Source: Clostridia bacterium
GTDB taxonomy: Bacteria; Bacillota; Clostridia; RUG12999
Direction of reading: 5' to 3'
Assembly (NCBI GenBank): GCA_045546415.1
Contig: JAZQCS010000092.1
Location: 280-64,279, forward strand
DNA length: 64,000 nt
Each line of letters begins with the position of its first letter. The first letter of the stretch is position 1. Below, one piece after another: positions 1,729 to 8,151 of the stretch. Position numbers and translations under genes: made by a program. The notes under the pieces were generated by a model. It was given only the letters and a program-made list of their open reading frames with translations, made no database searches and was not told the origin of the DNA.

Positions 1729-3561
1729 GTGAAAATTGAAAATATCAGAAACATTGCAATTATTGCCCATGTCGACCACGGTAAAACCACTATGGTTGAC
1801 AAAATGCTCAAGCAAAGCGGTATTTTCCGCAGTAACGAGGTTGTTCAGGACCGTGTTATGGACTCCAACGACCTTGAACGGGAGCGTGGCATTACCATTC
1901 TTTCAAAAAACACATCCATTGTTTATAACGATGTTAAAATCAACATTGTAGATACCCCCGGACACGCAGATTTCGGCGGCGAGGTTGAGCGTGTTCTTGG
2001 CATGGTTGAAGGTGTTCTTCTTCTTGTGGACGCTTTTGAGGGTGCTATGCCCCAGACCCGTTTTGTGCTTAAAAAGGCTCTTGAGCGCGGTCTTAAGCCA
2101 ATTGTTGTTGTGAATAAAATCGACAAAAAGGATGCCCGTCCCGAGGAAGTAGTTGACGAGGTTTTTGACCTGTTCTTTGAGCTTGGTGCAAACGACGAAC
2201 AGCTTGATTTCCCGGTTATTTATGCTTCTTCCCGTGAAGGTATAGCCATGAAGGATTTAGATAATCCCCAGGACGATATGACCGACCTTTTTGATGCCAT
2301 TATCGATATGGTTCCCCCACCCGAATGCGACCCCACACAGCCTCTTCAGATGCTTGTTTCCAACATTGATTCCGACGAGTACATAGGCAGAATTGCTGTG
2401 GGTAAAATAAAGCGCGGATATGTTCAGGAGGGCGAAACTGTTGCCATCTGCAAAAAGGACGGCACAGTTGCAAAAGCAAAGGTAAACAAGCTGTTCATTT
2501 ATGACGGCTTAAAGCGTATAGATGCGCCCGAAGTGAAATGCGGTGAAATTGTCTGTATTTCCGGCCTTGGCGATGTAGAAATCGGTGAAACCGTGTGCAA
2601 CATAATGTGTCCCGATGCCCTTCCGGTTATCAATGTGGACGAGCCTACCATCTCAATGAATTTCCTTGTGAATAACAGCCCATTTGCAGGCAAAGAAGGG
2701 GAATTTGTAACCTCCCGTCACCTTCGTGCCCGTCTTTTCAAGGAGCTTGAAACCAACGTTGCGCTCCGTGTTGAGGAAACCGATTCCTCCGACTGCTTCA
2801 AGCTTTCGGGCAGAGGCGAGCTTCACCTTTCCATTCTTATTGAAACAATGCGCCGTGAAGGTTATGAATTCCAGGTTTCCAAGCCTCAGGTTATCCTAAA
2901 AGAAGAAGGCGGAAAAACCCTGGAGCCTTATGAAATTGTAATTGTTGATGTTCCTGAAGAATATGCCGGAACAGTTATTGAAAAGCTTGGCGGCAGAAAA
3001 GCAGAAATGCGCAATATGACCCCCATAAACAATGGTGCTTACAGCCGTATAGAATTCCGTATCCCCTCCCGCGGTCTTATCGGTTACAGAAGTGAATTTC
3101 TGACCGACACAAGAGGTAACGGTATAATGAACACCATTTTTGACGGCTATGATGAATTCTGCGGTGCACTTCCCGGCAGAAACCGCGGTTCCATGATTGC
3201 CTGGGAGGATGGCGAATCCATCACCTACGGCTTATACAATGCCGAAGGCAGAGGCGAGCTGTTCATCGGTGCAGGCGTTAAGGTTTACCAGGGTATGATT
3301 GTTGGCAGAAATGCAAAATCCGAGGACATTGTAATTAATGTGTGCAAAAAGAAGCACGCTACAAACACCCGTGCTTCCGGCTCGGACGATGCACTTCGTC
3401 TTACACCACCTGTTATTATGAGCCTGGAAAATTGCCTTGAATTTATTGCCGATGACGAGCTTGTTGAAATCACTCCCCAAAACATCCGTCTCCGCAAAAA
3501 AATCCTTGATACCGAGCTTCGTGCAAAAGCCGAGGCAAGGGAAAGAAAAGCAAACATGTAA
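1729..3561 (+). CDS. typA: Translational GTPase TypA/BipA
   Basis: [12 protein letters not shown] (G1), DTPGH (G3) and NKIDK (G4) motifs with ~610 aa length are typical of BipA. I place the start at GTG 1729, 8 nt after RBS AAGGAGG (1714-1720) and in frame with track ORF 1678..3561. Confidence 0.9.
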
Positions 3562-3562
3562 T

Positions 3563-3600
3563 AAAACCCGGCGTAAAGCAAGCTTTACGCCGGGTTTTTG
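3563..3600. terminator. Rho-independent terminator between convergent typA and the TM2 gene (bidirectional)
   Basis: Hairpin CCCGGCGTAAAG-caag-CTTTACGCCGGG with an A-run before and TTTTTG after. Confidence 0.8.
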
Positions 3601-3601
3601 T

Positions 3602-3784
3602 TTACGGATTATATGGATTGGGTTTTAACAGAAGAAGAATAAGGTCTACAAACCAACCTATTCCGAAAAGGCCTCCTGTGAACAGATAAATAACTCCAAA
3701 CAGAACCTTTCCTTCATAAAATTTGTGAATACCGAAACCGCCAAAAAAGAAACAAAGCCAGAATGCCACCCATTTACTTTTCAT
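3602..3784 (-). CDS. TM2 domain-containing small membrane protein
   Basis: 60 aa with two transmembrane segments and the GGFGIHKFYEGK motif characteristic of the TM2/NINE family. Confidence 0.75.
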   Translation of the reverse strand: MKSKWVAFWLCFFFGGFGIHKFYEGKVLFGVIYLFTGGLFGIGWFVDLILLLLKPNPYNP

Positions 3785-4021
3785 AATTTGCCACCTTCCT
3801 TTTTTATTTTATCGGGATAATATCATAATATCACAAAATAAACAAAATTTCAAGTGGTTTTTAATTTTTAAAAGTATAGCGATGCCGAAATGCTAACAGC
3901 ATCGCTATACCGAGGGAATTACTGTTCTGTTTAATGTTGACGGGGGCTTGTTTTATTCCCTCATAGTAGAAAATGTTTTTTTCGCGAATTATCAAATAAC
4001 GACATAATTCATCAAAAACTA

Positions 4022-4050
4022 TTGAATTTTTCAAAAAAATATGATATACT
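4022..4050 (+). promoter_or_regulatory. Sigma-A type promoter driving the structured leader and the 4289 operon
   Basis: TTGAAT (4022-4027), 17 nt spacer, extended -10 TGaTATACT (4042-4050). The predicted +1 near 4056 is the first base of a long hairpin. Confidence 0.65.
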
Positions 4051-4054
4051 TGAA

Positions 4055-4230
4055 GTTGCTACACAATCTTCATATTTTTTTCCAAATCGGGAAACACTTT
4101 GTAAAAAGGTGTTTTCCCTATTACTCATACCGATTTGGGCGAGATTGTGTAGCAACAATGTGGGGATTCACTTTTTTTGTGCGTTCTCATTTGTTGACGG
4201 GGGCGCACTTTTTTTATACCCTCAGGTCGC
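4055..4230 (+). other. Structured 5' leader: a 102-nt three-segment perfect hairpin followed by a GC hairpin plus T-run (possible attenuator)
   Basis: The outer stem is 15 bp (4055-4069 with 4142-4156). The middle stem is 9 bp (CCAAATCGG 4082-4090 with CCGATTTGG 4130-4138). The inner stem is 6 bp (AAACAC/GTGTTT). Then GTGCG...GTTGACGGGGGCGCAC is followed by TTTTTTTAT (4181-4219), upstream of RBS AAGGAGG and ATG 4289. Confidence 0.5.
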
Positions 4231-4288
4231 AACATGAATGTCGCGAAAAAAACACGGACCCTTATGAATAAATTTTAAGGAGGATATT

Positions 4289-5263
4289 ATGAGCAATTCA
4301 CAATCATCGCAAATCTCATTGGAAAACATCATTGCAACATCAATCAAAATCCCAGGAGTTAAAGTTGACCGAAAATCCTTTTTGCTCAGCACTTTTAAAG
4401 ATTTTGACAATTTGGAGGAAATATATTCTTCCGGTCCGATTTCAGCCGGTATTACTCAAGAAAAACTGGCTGCTATCACTCAGAAGCTTATTCTCACCAG
4501 GACAAGTCAATCGTCTATTGCCTCTTTTATTGCCGGAATCCCCGGTGGTTTTGCTATGGCTGCGACAATACCTGCAGATGTGTTGCAATTCTTTGGCATA
4601 GCACTTAGGCTGGCACAAGAAATATCTTATATATACGGTTCCGAAGATTTATGGGAAAATGGCGAGGTAAATGACGACATGGTTCGTTCCAGACTAATTA
4701 TGTATTGTGGGGTTATGTTCGGAGTTTCTGGTGCCGTTTCAGGTGTAAGGGTTCTTTCCGCACAACTTGCAAAAACCACATTAAAAAAGCTCCCGCAAAA
4801 AGCATTAACCAAAACCATCTGGTATCCCGTACTAAAGCAAATCGGAAAAGCTATTGGAATAAAAATAACCAAATCAACAGTAGCGCAAGGCTTTTCAAAA
4901 GCAATTCCGTTAATTGGTGGAGTCGTTTCAGGATCTCTGAATTTTGCTTCTATGATGCCTATGGCCAAACGTTTAGCTGAAGCACTTGACAAAGCAGCTT
5001 TCGATTATACATCCGAGGAGATGGAAGCTGATATAATGGTGCTCGAAAATCTTGCAGATTACACAGAGGAAACTGATATTCCTTCTGCTGACGAACAGCA
5101 TCCAAGTCACATAAACTCGTCTGCATTTGTCAATCTCCCGGCCGAAACCAACTCCTTATATTGCAACCTTGAAACAATAAAGAAACTTAAAGAGTTATTG
5201 GATATGGATGCAATAACTCAGGAGGAGTACGATATTAAGAAAAAAGAATTACTTGGTTTATAA
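4289..5263 (+). CDS. EcsC-like family protein with a C-terminal SHOCT domain
   Basis: The central AGIPGGFAMAATIPADVLQFFGIALRLAQEISYIYG motif resembles the EcsC/DUF697-type signature. The C-terminal LKELLDMDAITQEEYDIKKKELL is a typical SHOCT motif. RBS AAGGAGG precedes the start. Confidence 0.6.
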   Translation: MSNSQSSQISLENIIATSIKIPGVKVDRKSFLLSTFKDFDNLEEIYSSGPISAGITQEKLAAITQKLILTRTSQSSIASFIAGIPGGFAMAATIPADVLQFFGIALRLAQEISYIYGSEDLWENGEVNDDMVRSRLIMYCGVMFGVSGAVSGVRVLSAQLAKTTLKKLPQKALTKTIWYPVLKQIGKAIGIKITKSTVAQGFSKAIPLIGGVVSGSLNFASMMPMAKRLAEALDKAAFDYTSEEMEADIMVLENLADYTEETDIPSADEQHPSHINSSAFVNLPAETNSLYCNLETIKKLKELLDMDAITQEEYDIKKKELLGL

Positions 5264-5289
5264 AGTCAATACATAAGGAGGAACCTTTA

Positions 5290-5895
5290 ATGAAAATAAA
5301 AAAAATATTATCATCAATGTTTAAAACAAAGATAGGAATAATCATTTCTGCAATACTTTTGTTATCGATAATCGCAGGTATAATTTTCTTGGCTTCATAT
5401 AACCCCACACCTAATGTGGATGTAACTTTTCTCACTCAGATTCTCCGTGAAAAAAGCGACCTGATTACAGCAGAGCTTAATATAACAAGTGTGACAGAAT
5501 ATAAAGACTCGGGTGTGAAATTCATCAACAAATCGGATTTTATAATGATGGCGAAAGCAACAGTATGGGCAGGGATAGATGTTGAAGAAGTTAAAATAAA
5601 AGCCGATAACGCTAACAAAATCATTTACATATCCATACCAAAATCAACTATTCAAAACGCAAAGGTCGACGAATCATCAATTAAATATTTTGATGAAAAA
5701 GTTTCACTTTTCAACAAAGATGTAAAACAGGATGTCGCGAAAGCCATAGAAGAAGCTGAAAAAAACGCCAAACAGGAAGCTGAAAACTGCGGTCTGCTTA
5801 AATTGGCAGATAAACAATCAGAAATACTCATTAAAGGATTGTTGGCTAATGTCGTTCCGAAAGAATATTCAATCGAAACCAAATTTATCGATTAA
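5290..5895 (+). CDS. DUF4230-like membrane-anchored protein
   Basis: It has an N-terminal TM anchor (IGIIISAILLLSIIAGIIFLA) and a ~200 aa size and composition typical of DUF4230. RBS AAGGAGG precedes the start. It is co-directional with its neighbours, with small gaps. Confidence 0.5.
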   Translation: MKIKKILSSMFKTKIGIIISAILLLSIIAGIIFLASYNPTPNVDVTFLTQILREKSDLITAELNITSVTEYKDSGVKFINKSDFIMMAKATVWAGIDVEEVKIKADNANKIIYISIPKSTIQNAKVDESSIKYFDEKVSLFNKDVKQDVAKAIEEAEKNAKQEAENCGLLKLADKQSEILIKGLLANVVPKEYSIETKFID

Positions 5896-5987
5896 CTACC
5901 TGTTCCTTCTATGTATACCTTGACATACCTCTCAACCAATGATATAATAAAATCATTATCACATACTTTTACGAAAGGATGATACAA

Positions 5988-7136
5988 ATGAAAGGTAATG
6001 TTCTGGTTATTGGTAATTCCGGTGTGGGAAAATCCACCCTGATTAATGCGGTACTTGGTTCAGATGCCGCAAAAACCGGTTGGGGCACCGTCGGTACAAC
6101 CGACAAGCTGGAAATATATTCAAGTGAAAACATTCCGTTTCAGGTTATTGATACCATTGGCTTTGAGCCGGGCTTTATAAAAAAACAGCAGGCTATAAAT
6201 GCCGTAAAAAAATGGTCAAGAAAAAGTGCCTCGGACGGAGCTGAAAACAAAGATATAAATGTTATATGGTTCTGCATTGACGGAACCTCAAGAAAGCTTT
6301 TTGAGGACAGTATAAAAAGCCTTTCTTCTGCTACATCCATGTGGAAATCCGTACCGGTTATTGTTGTTATTACAAAGTCTTATTCCCTGCCTGAGCGTGC
6401 CGAAAACATCGAAATGGTTCAGAACGCTTTTGCAAAGCAGAAAAAATACGAAAATAACCTTCGCAAAATCATCCCTGTTGTTGCAGAGACCTATATGATT
6501 AACGAAACCTCCTTTGTGCCGCCTGAAGGCTTAACTGAGCTTATAGATGTCACAAACGAGCTTATGCCCGAAGGCTTAAAGGCAGCAGAAGCCGATATTG
6601 CAAGCTTTAAGCTCACCCGCAAAAGAGTATTGGCTCAGAGTGTTGTGGGAACTGCAGTTACCGCAGGTACCGTTGTGGGCGCTGTACCCATTCCCTTTGC
6701 GGATGCACTTATACTGAGCCCCCTTGAAATTGCAGAGGTTAACGCCATCGCCAAGGTTTACGGAATAAAAAATGACGAGGATTCCAAGCGGTTTTTAAAC
6801 TCCATAGTTGAAGTTGGAACCGTCAGCCTTGTTGCACGGGCCGCCATAAGCGGTCTTAAAGCTATTCCGGGCTTAACCATTGGTACAAGTGTGCTCAATG
6901 CCGTTATTGCCGCTTTCTTTGTTGCCGCAATCGGTGAAGGCAGCGTTTATGCTTTTGAGCAGATTTATCTCGGCAAAAAGACTGTTCAGGACATAGACTG
7001 GGTAACAAAAATAATAGAATCAAAGCTTTCCAACGACTTTTTGAAGAAAATCCAGGGAATTGTTGCAAATGCCGGTAAAAACATTGATATGAAATCGGTT
7101 ATAAAAAGCATATTGGAATTATTCACAAAAAAATAG
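5988..7136 (+). CDS. P-loop GTPase (MMR_HSR1-like) with a DUF697/YcjF-like C-terminal region
   Basis: GNSGVGKST (G1), DTIGFE (G3) and ITKSY (G4-like). The C-terminal VGAVPIPFADALILSPLEIAEVNAIAKVYG resembles the DUF697 signature. I place the start at ATG 5988 (RBS GAAAGGA 5973-5979), in frame with track ORF 5979. Confidence 0.7.
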   Translation: MKGNVLVIGNSGVGKSTLINAVLGSDAAKTGWGTVGTTDKLEIYSSENIPFQVIDTIGFEPGFIKKQQAINAVKKWSRKSASDGAENKDINVIWFCIDGTSRKLFEDSIKSLSSATSMWKSVPVIVVITKSYSLPERAENIEMVQNAFAKQKKYENNLRKIIPVVAETYMINETSFVPPEGLTELIDVTNELMPEGLKAAEADIASFKLTRKRVLAQSVVGTAVTAGTVVGAVPIPFADALILSPLEIAEVNAIAKVYGIKNDEDSKRFLNSIVEVGTVSLVARAAISGLKAIPGLTIGTSVLNAVIAAFFVAAIGEGSVYAFEQIYLGKKTVQDIDWVTKIIESKLSNDFLKKIQGIVANAGKNIDMKSVIKSILELFTKK

Positions 7137-7138
7137 TA

Positions 7139-7172
7139 AAAACCCGCAACTTTAGTTGCGGGTCATTTTTTA
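7139..7172. terminator. Bidirectional rho-independent terminator between convergent genes
   Basis: Hairpin CCCGCAAC-ttta-GTTGCGGG (7143-7162) with an A-run upstream and TTTTTT downstream. Confidence 0.8.
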
Positions 7173-7787
7173 TACTTTCTCAATTTCACGGTAAAACGGT
7201 TTTACCGTAGCTTCACCTTCGGCAGATATGCCTTCGGTTTTAACAAAAGCCTTCCACACCGTCAGAAAAATAAGCTTAACATCAAGGGAAAAACTGACGC
7301 TTTCAACATATTCCACATCGAGAGCAAATTTTTCCTCCCAGGAAATGGCATTCCGCCCATTCACCTGAGCAAGACCGGTAAGCCCCGGACGCACATCGTG
7401 ACGGTGGCGCTCGGTTTCGTTATACATAGGGAGATATTCAACAAGAAGGGGTCTGGGTCCTACTACGCTCATATCCCCTTTAAGAATGTTAAACGCCTCA
7501 GGCAATTCATCAAGACTCGTTTTTCTCAGCAGCCTGCCGAACCTTGTAAGCCTGATATCATCAGGCAAAAGGTTTCCGTTTTCATCCCGTTTATCTGTCA
7601 TTGTTCTGAACTTGTAAAGTGTAAAAATTTCCCCGTTTTTACCCGGGCGTTCCTGTTTGAAAAGCACCGGGCTGCCAAGCTTTACCCTTACAAGCACGGC
7701 AAGAATAACATATAACCAGGAAAAAACCGTTATTGCAAGCAAGGCACAGACAATGTCCATAAACCGCTTACCAAACTTTCTGTACAT
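7170..7787 (-). CDS. Undecaprenyl-phosphate sugar phosphotransferase (PglC/WbaP C-terminal-like bacterial sugar transferase)
   Basis: ~205 aa with one N-terminal TM segment. Motifs PVLFKQERPGKNG, TLYKFRTM, DELPE and VVGPRP are typical of small monotopic phosphoglycosyl transferases. Confidence 0.85.
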   Translation of the reverse strand: MYRKFGKRFMDIVCALLAITVFSWLYVILAVLVRVKLGSPVLFKQERPGKNGEIFTLYKFRTMTDKRDENGNLLPDDIRLTRFGRLLRKTSLDELPEAFNILKGDMSVVGPRPLLVEYLPMYNETERHRHDVRPGLTGLAQVNGRNAISWEEKFALDVEYVESVSFSLDVKLIFLTVWKAFVKTEGISAEGEATVKPFYREIEKV

Positions 7788-7913
7788 ACCAAAATCTCCC
7801 TTAAAATCAGCTTTTTTTCATATCTCTCTTACTATTATATATTACTTTGTGCATCAATGTCAAGCACAAAAAAAGTTTTTATGAAATTTTTTTAAATTTT
7901 TTTCAAAAAACTC

Positions 7914-7960: not shown

Positions 7961-8037
7961 GCGCCAGTAGCTCAGCTGGATAGAGTGTTTGGCTACGAAC
8001 CAAAAGGTCGGGGGTTCGAACCCCTCCTGGCGTACCA
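7961..8037 (+). tRNA. tRNA-Arg (anticodon ACG)
   Basis: I folded the cloverleaf by eye. The acceptor is GCGCCAG/CTGGCGT, the anticodon loop is CTACGAA, the T-loop is GGTTCGAACCC, and the 3' CCA is encoded. Confidence 0.85.
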
Positions 8038-8059: not shown

Positions 8060-8151
8060 GGAGAGATGGCTGAGTTGGCTTAAGGCGCACGATTGGAAAT
8101 CGTGTGTACGTTAGTAGCGTACCGAGAGTTCGAATCTCTCTCTCTCCCCCA
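8060..8151 (+). tRNA. tRNA-Ser (anticodon GGA), class II with a long variable arm
   Basis: The acceptor is GGAGAGA/TCTCTCC, the anticodon loop is TTGGAAA, the variable-arm hairpin is GTACG...CGTAC, the T-arm is GAGAG-TTCGAAT-CTCTC, and the 3' CCA is encoded. Its 3' part contains the putative prophage att core. Confidence 0.85.
8135..8147. repeat. Putative attL core (TCTCTCTCTCTCC) inside the 3' end of tRNA-Ser
   Basis: The same 13-mer recurs at 42506-42518 and, with one inserted C, at 42685-42698 beyond the integrase gene. Confidence 0.45.

Follow-up and report, generated by a model that had tools for sequence, protein, structure and literature searches.

Introduction

The PDC families of PADLOC, 145 phage-defence candidates, go back to genes found embedded within BREX, DISARM and type I restriction-modification (RM) systems, an approach called guilt by embedding (Payne et al. 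2024, bioRxiv 10.1101/2024.01.29.577857). Here we describe a locus that encodes a member of one of these families, PDC-S30, in a 64,000-nt stretch of DNA (the window) from a Clostridia bacterium (RUG12999; assembly GCA_045546415.1, contig JAZQCS010000092.1, positions 280–64,279 of the forward strand). The locus consists of genes for an EcsC-like protein with a SHOCT tail (g1), a DUF4230 protein (g2) and a P-loop GTPase-class protein with a DUF697-like tail (g3). Our analysis favours, with moderate confidence, the view that two transcription units are combined in this locus and that the proteins they encode are part of a loosely linked guild of small membrane-associated proteins.

Like the PDC-S30 candidate, g1 mostly stands alone in variable contexts; here, it is paired with a DUF4230 gene and an elaborate upstream control region, which are outside the PADLOC definition. 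Weak profile similarity over the Gly-rich hydrophobic core links g1 to EcsC, which is encoded in the EcsAB(C) locus of Bacillus subtilis, but ecsA/ecsB partners are missing here, and g1 ends in SHOCT and its relatives in TerB, GvpG or DUF533. YcjX/YcjF of Escherichia coli, which is linked to Psp, couples an NTPase to a DUF697-type membrane domain as g3 does, whereas in g3 the two are fused and the NTPase is of the MMR_HSR1/septin-like class, not YcjX/DUF463. Phage moron cassettes and leaders that contain a terminator, such as riboswitch-type attenuators, share with the region upstream of g1 the order of promoter, structured RNA, terminator and envelope cargo between unrelated genes, and the resemblance of the leader to the put-type antitermination RNAs of HK022 is only architectural. 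Finally, a motif directly upstream of g1 resembles the Mor/C promoters of phage Mu in that a palindrome lies at or overlaps the −35 position, the −10 box is recognisable and a consensus −35 box is missing; the palindrome of the Mu Pm promoter is centred at −43.5, and the one found here nearer −33.

The window locus was read against ~230 related loci in total (labelled L001–L233). The g1 sample comprised 80 loci around g1 relatives, each from a different GTDB species, in which genes were sought with tblastn and custom hidden Markov models (HMMs). The g3 sample, which is small and partly redundant, included ~20 full-length metagenome loci. The final tally was 88 g1 loci and 35 g3 loci, with the window counted in both. 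Genes in the fetched loci were called by a simple open reading frame (ORF) caller and many of these loci are incomplete; the E-values of the custom-built models are rough.

The three genes do not form a conserved trio

As a previous reading of the DNA from sequence only had described, g1, g2 and g3 are three co-directional ORFs with gaps of 26 nt and 92 nt, and none of the three proteins is characterised. The literature on PDC-S30, DUF4230, DUF697, EcsC plus SHOCT, and DUF4839/DUF6591 gave no functional data, and NCBIfam has no family for g1 or g2. The same sequence-only reading took the genes for one system related to envelope stress. A dedicated, Psp-like three-gene operon driven by one promoter would be in line with the shared direction, the tight spacing and the lack of a terminator between g2 and g3, with the membrane association that the sequences indicate for all three products, with the recurrence of DUF4230 beside both g1 and g3, and with a protein that fuses a g1-like domain to a GTPase. 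We nevertheless regard such an operon as very improbable, since g1 and g3 occur together only in the window: g3 is missing near g1 in all 87 further g1 loci, as is g1 near g3 in all 34 further g3 loci. Moreover, PspA and PspC are not among the 25 most frequent of the 110 families into which the 123 flanking proteins of g1 homologues fall, a YcjX-like partner was not seen among them, and the window flanks encode neither a YcjX (DUF463) partner nor PspA/PspC. The neighbours thus give no support to the proposed Psp link.

The closest relative of g3 (P0003, 85% amino acid identity) is found on contig L138, where the gene order is typA–TM2–g3–tRNA without g1 or g2. Positions 1–2060 of L138 align by blastn to window positions 1805–3863 (typA and TM2, 87% nucleotide identity) and positions 2168–3330 to 5973–7135 (g3, 80%), while the tRNA region aligns at 93%. 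Only 107 nt lie between the typA–TM2 and g3 alignment blocks of L138, and a 2.1-kb segment of the window has no counterpart there (Table 1). Because g1–g2 is absent from L138, the best g1 homologue is only 63–66% identical (versus 85% for the best homologue of g3) and the G+C content of the segment is lower (0.33–0.42 versus 0.46–0.48 in typA), we read g1–g2 as an inserted cassette that was probably acquired horizontally.

The gene g3 is directly preceded by a promoter that matches the sigma-70-type consensus at all 12 positions, and the g3 gene of L138 follows an equivalent TTGAAT...TGGTACAAT (read by eye from the sequence). This internal promoter had not been mentioned before, nor had the structured RNA and terminator in the ~235-nt 5′ region or the motif at 4241–4267. 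Conversely, the distal promoter upstream of g1 had been called a strong consensus promoter. It is present at the proposed place, but it matches the consensus at only 9 of 12 positions, and sites of this quality are to be expected by chance in DNA so rich in AT (7 observed versus 10.7 expected from shuffles). We take it as real because the same placement is seen in the g1 loci L066 and L077 and because the extended −10 box is conserved in viral loci, where one of the TGTGCTATAC type lies directly 5′ of the leader in all ~27 copies with inspected upstream regions. Since the trio is not conserved, the nearest relative lacks g1 and g2, and g3 has its own consensus promoter, a three-gene system is unsupported.

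The sequence-only reading had also noted an IPGG...YG motif common to g1 and the g3 tail. The motif is visible by eye, without statistical support from hhalign, BLASTP or Pfam. We rejected a homologous origin of the g1 core and the tail of g3 at an hhalign probability of 3% (alignment A1 versus A2) or 0.5% (A7 versus A2) and a BLASTP E-value of 0.59; BLAST aligns the motif itself merely in a segment that lacks significance (E 19), and Pfam gives no cross-matches between the two regions.

Table 1. Positions of the features of the g1–g2–g3 locus and of related loci (window coordinates unless a locus label is given).
Feature	Position	Strand	Basis or remark
TM2 small membrane protein, 60 amino acids	3602–3784	−	Divergent from the cluster; Pfam TM2, E 9e-18
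Segment without counterpart in L138 (2.1 kb)	3864–5972		Leader, g1, g2 and g3 promoter region; blastn
Degenerate partial copy of the leader 3′ part	3872–3998	+	R1 22.5 bits, E 0.01; repeats
Second motif copy, TCGCGAAAAAAACA-N-TATGA	3961–3987	−	Towards TM2; strict scan
Distal promoter, TTGAAT-17-TATACT, extended −10 TG	4022–4050	+	Starts leader RNA; sequence match and conservation
Structured leader RNA (~165–210 nt)	4051–4260	+	Fold, covariation, models
Leader helix P1	4055–4069/4142–4156	+	Encloses P2 and P3
Leader bulge, conserved CUCAUACC		+	
Leader terminator hairpin and U7	4179–4215	+	
Proximal promoter-like motif, GTCGCG-N17-TATGAA	4241–4267	+	TCGCGA palindromic core; 21 nt before g1 start
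g1, 324 amino acids	4289–5263	+	EcsC-like core, acidic linker, C-terminal SHOCT; PDC-S30 member
g2, 201 amino acids	5290–5895	+	DUF4230, one N-terminal transmembrane helix at ~residues 14–36; Pfam, hydropathy maximum 3.0
g3 promoter, TTGACA-17-TATAAT with TG	5920–5948	+	12/12 sigma-70-type match, directly 5′ of g3
g3, 382 amino acids	5988–7136	+	P-loop GTPase-class domain, DUF697-like hydrophobic Gly-rich tail; Pfam, homologues
Bidirectional intrinsic terminator	7142–7163		Common to g3 and convergent sugar-transferase gene
Leader copies in other loci	L066 3411–3612; L077 336–546; L154–L233		L154–L233 viral
Mor-bearing loci	L014, L016, L019, L021, L022, L024, L031, L048, L050, L065, L079, L085, L095, L140		

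A structured leader RNA is shared with viral contigs

The 235 nt between the distal promoter and g1 fold around a 15-bp perfect inverted repeat with a z-score of −5.1 compared to shuffles. Up to the end of its intrinsic terminator, the leader is ~165 nt long. An nhmmer search with positions 4020–4254 retrieved the same element upstream of the g1 cassettes in L066 (E 2e-13) and L077 (E 2.5e-11). The three-way alignment comprises the promoter, a 16-bp P1 around P2 and P3, the CUCAUACC bulge, the terminator hairpin with its U-run and an outer GAGGG/CCCUC helix; 93.5% of its cells are paired, and 13 pairs are changed on both sides versus 1–3 in slid controls. A pattern of 21 nt taken from the 3′ strand of P1 occurs in 95 stretches of viral contigs, with about one expected by chance (a rough estimate), and all of the 80 viral loci that were fetched (L154–L233) carry a full-length leader match of 32–110 bits. 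Among 52 distinct viral sequences, 86% of the cells are paired and 16 pairs show two-sided changes, versus 3–7 in slid controls. Of two leader models, R1 was built from the window, L066 and L077, and R2 from the 80 viral copies. As R1 had served to retrieve and align these copies, R2 is not fully independent of the window; it scores the window leader at 125 bits (E 2e-27). The strand of the RNA is settled by its large number of G-U pairs. Rfam 15 gave no match for the leader in the window (E ≤ 1) or in five viral loci (E ≤ 0.1), and neither the leader nor one viral copy matched any of 50,697 deposited phage genomes by blastn.

In the ~27 viral copies inspected, a ribosome-binding site (RBS) follows 25–40 nt past the U-tract and precedes varied envelope cargo, e.g., DUF4839 lipoproteins, DUF6591 lipoproteins and a PASTA-like membrane protein. 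In L176, the leader unit has nrdD/nrdG/mazG on one side and, on the other, a gene that matches DUF2800 weakly and is followed by a gene for a 906-amino-acid protein containing a helix-turn-helix (HTH), an arrangement like that of a moron. As the viral cargo could be expressed only by read-through, we read the RNA as a leader whose terminator is conditional or is overcome by the RNA itself. An independent small RNA gene between the 4022 promoter and the 4215 terminator, for example a type III toxin-antitoxin/Abi-type antitoxin or a regulator, with g1–g2 transcribed only from the TTCGCG element, would account for the complete promoter–RNA–terminator unit ahead of g1, for the separate conserved motif between terminator and g1 along with the many g1 loci that have this motif without the RNA, and for a partial duplicate just upstream that has an oppositely oriented copy of the motif and matches the terminator loop over 13 nt. 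However, the viral copies inspected leave no room for a promoter between U-tract and RBS, so that the RNA must be a leader there, and it is not tandemly repeated, unlike ToxI-type antitoxins. We therefore consider a separate small RNA gene improbable.

Two other explanations of the region were discarded. A leader peptide (ORFs 4022–4237 and 4041–4271) would have its start codon inside the promoter, and the lengths of the indels between homologous leaders would break a reading frame, as they are not divisible by three. That the long inverted repeat is an operator acting at the DNA level is disfavoured by the many G-U pairs and by the far lower model score of the reverse strand. Within the RNA, a candidate CUCAU:AUGAG pairing, which would turn the bulge into a pseudoknot, is compatible with the alignment but invariant and thus without covariation.

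The degenerate partial leader copy upstream of the distal promoter includes a 12-bp perfect hairpin (3874–3910) that, with a T-run after it, reads as a terminator on the minus strand. The 13-nt sequence TGTTGACGGGGGC is repeated exactly at 3935–3947 and 4192 and corresponds to the loop of the leader terminator together with its 3′ stem. If the minus strand were transcribed from 3987, the product would be antisense to this part of the terminator.

Look-alikes of unrelated sequence occur in L022 (15307–15535, minus strand) and L085 (5988–6232, plus strand), each with a promoter, a near-perfect rod hairpin of 130–165 nt and a strong terminator. Folded singly, both have a z-score of −10.4, and aligning them gave poor register. 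They are located upstream of a DUF1273/SLOG-like and a B12-binding/radical-SAM-like gene, respectively (read by eye).

A recurrent promoter-like motif precedes g1 and its partners

Between the leader terminator and g1 lies the proximal motif, which in its general form TTCGCG-N17-TATGA consists of the palindrome TTCGCGAA and an A-rich spacer and is found at other loci including L140/141, L050 and L166. TCGCGA is present within 200 nt upstream of 25 of the 89 g1 genes, compared to a background of 0.019 per 200 nt. The strict motif TCGCG[AT]AAAAAACA...TTATGA has 25 matches in ~2.4 Mb of loci, every one of them directly 5′ of an ORF. These ORFs are 20 g1 genes (19 homologues and the window), one g3 homologue (L101), Mor genes including a Mor–DUF4230 pair, one viral ORF and TM2. 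In the window, the copy facing TM2 and the one facing g1 share a 14-nt inverted repeat (3974–3987/4241–4254). L142 and many other g1 loci carry the motif without the leader RNA.

Genes of the Mor family (PF08765) are found beside g1 in 12 of the 80 GTDB loci, usually in divergent orientation, and six of these 12 loci also have DUF4230 or TM2. Mor likewise adjoins g3 in L095 and precedes DUF4230 in L140/141; the seven Mor proteins that were scanned with Pfam all scored above the cut-off. The palindrome at a non-consensus −35 position, the fair −10 box and the nearby Mor genes suggest, by analogy, that the motif is a candidate activator-dependent (Mor-type) promoter. Because the window has no Mor gene, the activator would have to come from elsewhere.

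L095 (6519–9567) shows a further context of g3, which lies between the genes for Mor and for an AIM24-family protein; a gene for a MotA/ExbB-like channel protein comes next, and all four have the same direction.

Domain composition of the three proteins

Our Pfam scan of the domains named in the sequence-only reading placed SHOCT, DUF4230 and MMR_HSR1 above their cut-offs, and EcsC and DUF697 just below theirs. At the family level, the profile matches make the labels EcsC for g1 and DUF697 for g3 reasonable.

The g1 protein is a full-length match to PADLOC PDC-S30 (E 2.2e-95, 317 bits, residues 2–253 on profile positions 3–257 of 268); the PDC-S29 profile matches more weakly. SHOCT (PF09851) scores 30.8 bits against a cut-off of 27 at residues 296–322. 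EcsC (PF12787) scores 19.5 bits (E 8e-4), under the cut-off of 30.4, and g1 is thus termed EcsC-like only; 10 of 56 diverse g1 relatives match EcsC at E < 1e-3, the best at E 2e-8. The tail is interchangeable, with SHOCT in 21 of these 56 relatives and TerB, GvpG, DUF533 or LEA_4 in others. Both g1 and the g3 tail contain only marginally hydrophobic, Gly-rich segments according to hydropathy. A PDB sequence search gave no match for g1 or g2, and in PHROGs only two regions have matches, the g1 SHOCT tail and the g3 P-loop. The AlphaFold2 (AF2) model of g1 was unusable (pLDDT 51.8).

A total of 3908 g1 homologues was found, which form 1194 clusters at 50% identity. In a pattern scan, g1 was detected in 352 of 185,579 species representatives, i.e., its distribution is patchy, and g1 proteins are 52–63% identical across Clostridia, Eggerthellaceae, Erysipelotrichaceae and other groups. 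The patchy distribution together with this degree of identity across these groups fits horizontal spread of g1.

DUF4230 (PF14014) in g2 scores 88.7 bits (E 5e-25). The Lys-rich N-terminus in front of the transmembrane helix suggests an N-in topology with the alpha/beta domain facing outwards. The AF2 model of g2 is moderately confident (pLDDT 77.6) and shows a beta-sheet packed against two long helices; a Foldseek search of the PDB with this model gave nothing significant (best hit BPIFA1, E 0.04, TM-score 0.18).

For g3, the start is best placed at the ATG at 5988, in agreement with the N-termini of homologues and with a database entry of 382 amino acids. MMR_HSR1 scores 48.2 bits (E 1e-12) and DUF697 (PF05128) 26.6 bits (E 6e-6) against a cut-off of 27.7; most close homologues carry a precomputed PF05128 annotation. 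The family is large, with more than 2352 matches among the 8000 candidates listed. The G1 (GNSGVGKST) and G3 (DTIGF) motifs are canonical and invariant in alignment A2. The G4 position (residues 129–132) reads TKSY in g3 and all of 20 homologues and lacks the guanine-specifying Asp of [NT]KxD, and nucleotide specificity is therefore uncertain.

A 635-amino-acid protein (P0296) combines an N-terminal g1-like, EcsC-like domain with a P-loop GTPase domain and a coiled-coil tail, in a domain order opposite to that of g3. The N-terminal 62 residues of its P-loop domain are 37% identical to g3.

g1 and g3 share partners in mix-and-match combinations

DUF4230 is the most frequent family among the neighbours of g1 homologues (10 of 123 proteins), followed by DUF6591. 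By HMM, DUF4230 occurs near g1 in 12 of the 80 GTDB loci; 11 of these have it immediately next to g1 in the same orientation, in many cases as two tandem genes, and in the exception, L043, it is ~4 kb away on the opposite strand. TM2 follows g1 in L014 and L031 and adjoins it in L142, and the locus of the nearest g1 homologue has the order g1, 29-amino-acid ORF, DUF4230, TM2. TM2 also adjoins g3 in L134, L135/136, L138 and L152, and g3 is accompanied by DUF4230 and/or TM2 in L001–L004, L090, L134, L135/136, L138 and L152.

Several of these combinations are on mobile elements. In L001–L004, which represent one element in many samples, g3 and two DUF4230 genes are cargo of an integrative mobilisable element with integrase, NikA, primase, VapE and MobA/MobL. 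L134 has DUF4230–g3–TM2 on an element with a serine recombinase, and other contexts are DUF4230–TM2–HTH–g3 and, on a viral contig, g3–TM2. The shared DUF4230, TM2 and Mor neighbours together with the P0296 fusion underlie the idea that g1 and g3 may play equivalent roles with shared partners. As the partners are absent from the surroundings of g1 and g3 in the majority of loci, the guild would be facultative, with members that mix and match.

The cargo of L001–L004 is directly beside a pair of HTH and RVT_1 reverse-transcriptase genes, which looks defence-like.

Other neighbours of g1 homologues are mostly metabolic, with a few RhuM/PDC-S05, PDC-S23, AAA_21, Fic and Mor proteins. ABC transporters are not encoded beside g1 in the window, and ABC_tran accounts for 3 of the 123 neighbours of its homologues. 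Similarly, no BREX, DISARM or RM system lies beside g1 in the window, and N6_Mtase accounts for 1 of the 123 neighbours.

A two-unit model and its alternatives

In our model, Unit A (~3864–5972) would be an acquired cassette made up of the distal promoter, the terminated leader, the proximal TTCGCG element, g1 and g2, and Unit B the resident g3 with its own promoter and terminator, whose conserved neighbour is the divergent TM2 gene. The layout of the locus, the indel, the lack of a conserved trio, the recurrent pairings with DUF4230, TM2 and Mor and the RNA family are observations, whereas the roles and the control described next are proposals. The g1 protein, with Gly-rich helices and an oligomerising SHOCT tail, and the g3 protein, with a similar tail under a nucleotide switch, would represent alternative membrane-acting heads. 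Their partners would be the DUF4230 protein, a single-pass protein that faces outwards, and the TM2 protein with its two helices. The leader terminator would limit expression of Unit A until read-through occurs and/or a Mor-like activator, possibly from a phage, acts in trans. The output could be an envelope change for superinfection exclusion, abortive infection or another accessory stress function. Overall, we infer an inducible, membrane-acting accessory or defence module.

A more far-reaching version can be proposed only tentatively. Here, the leader would be a new class of phage and mobile-element leader, either a conditional terminator or a put-like antitermination element, that gates envelope-acting moron cargo, PDC-S30 cassettes among it. 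In addition, g1 and g3 would be interchangeable heads of a membrane defence or superinfection-exclusion guild with DUF4230 and TM2 as further members, which fires from TTCGCGAA-box promoters in response to a Mor-type phage activator, so that the invader's own transcription factor would serve the cell as a trigger.

Several observations weigh against the two-unit model or its functional part. No terminator was found between g2 and g3, and read-through could yield a three-gene transcript in this strain. The indel relative to L138 could also be a deletion in the L138 lineage. The leader is carried by only 3 of the ~88 g1 loci, no Mor gene is present in the 64-kb window, and no partner is nearby in 73 of the 88 g1 loci and 24 of the 35 g3 loci. 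PDC-S30, the family that g1 matches, is itself only a candidate for a defence role; defence genes are not prominent among its neighbours, and both families are rare in viral contigs, with g1 in seven loci and g3 in two.

All three could instead be genes for ordinary housekeeping or for membrane homeostasis in a niche, without a role in defence, which became adjacent in a variable typA–tRNA/prophage region, the PDC-S30 label being a false positive of guilt by embedding. The mostly metabolic or housekeeping neighbours of g1, the high abundance of both families in gut Firmicutes with their rarity in viral contigs, and a second indel in the same region (7136–7876) are consistent with this explanation. 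On the other hand, the patchy distribution of g1 fits horizontal spread, homologues reside on mobilisable elements, the leader of the cassette is otherwise seen in phage contigs, and activators of the Mor family recur nearby, so that we judge this explanation to be unlikely.

Read against the related loci, the locus brings four very abundant gut-Firmicute families, EcsC-like/SHOCT (PDC-S30), DUF4230, TM2 and GTPase-DUF697, into a testable grouping based on shared partners, a Mor-type regulator and an upstream motif, and ties the PADLOC candidate PDC-S30 to a concrete regulatory design. It also comes with a structured RNA that is absent from Rfam, although at least 80 contigs of uncultivated phages carry it. 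If triggering by an activator or gating by the leader were true, the locus would exemplify host accessory genes that are wired to phage regulatory signals. This would also provide a handle on the control of prophage moron genes in gut Clostridia.

Flanking genes

Upstream, the cluster is bordered by typA/bipA and then by the divergent TM2 gene. Downstream of g3, a convergent sugar-transferase gene is followed by genes for tRNA-Arg (7961–8037) and tRNA-Ser (8060–8151). The sugar-transferase gene (7170–7787, minus strand) lies in the second indel relative to L138 (7136–7876), and we therefore regard the typA-to-tRNA interval as a variable region. The tRNA genes are abutted by a prophage (8325–38559, minus strand) with a P22-like portal protein, a large terminase, a ParB-like protein and a Phg_2220_C/Lin1244 protein. 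Its first gene encodes a polyvalent protein of 2631 amino acids with MuF_C and LPD38 domains.

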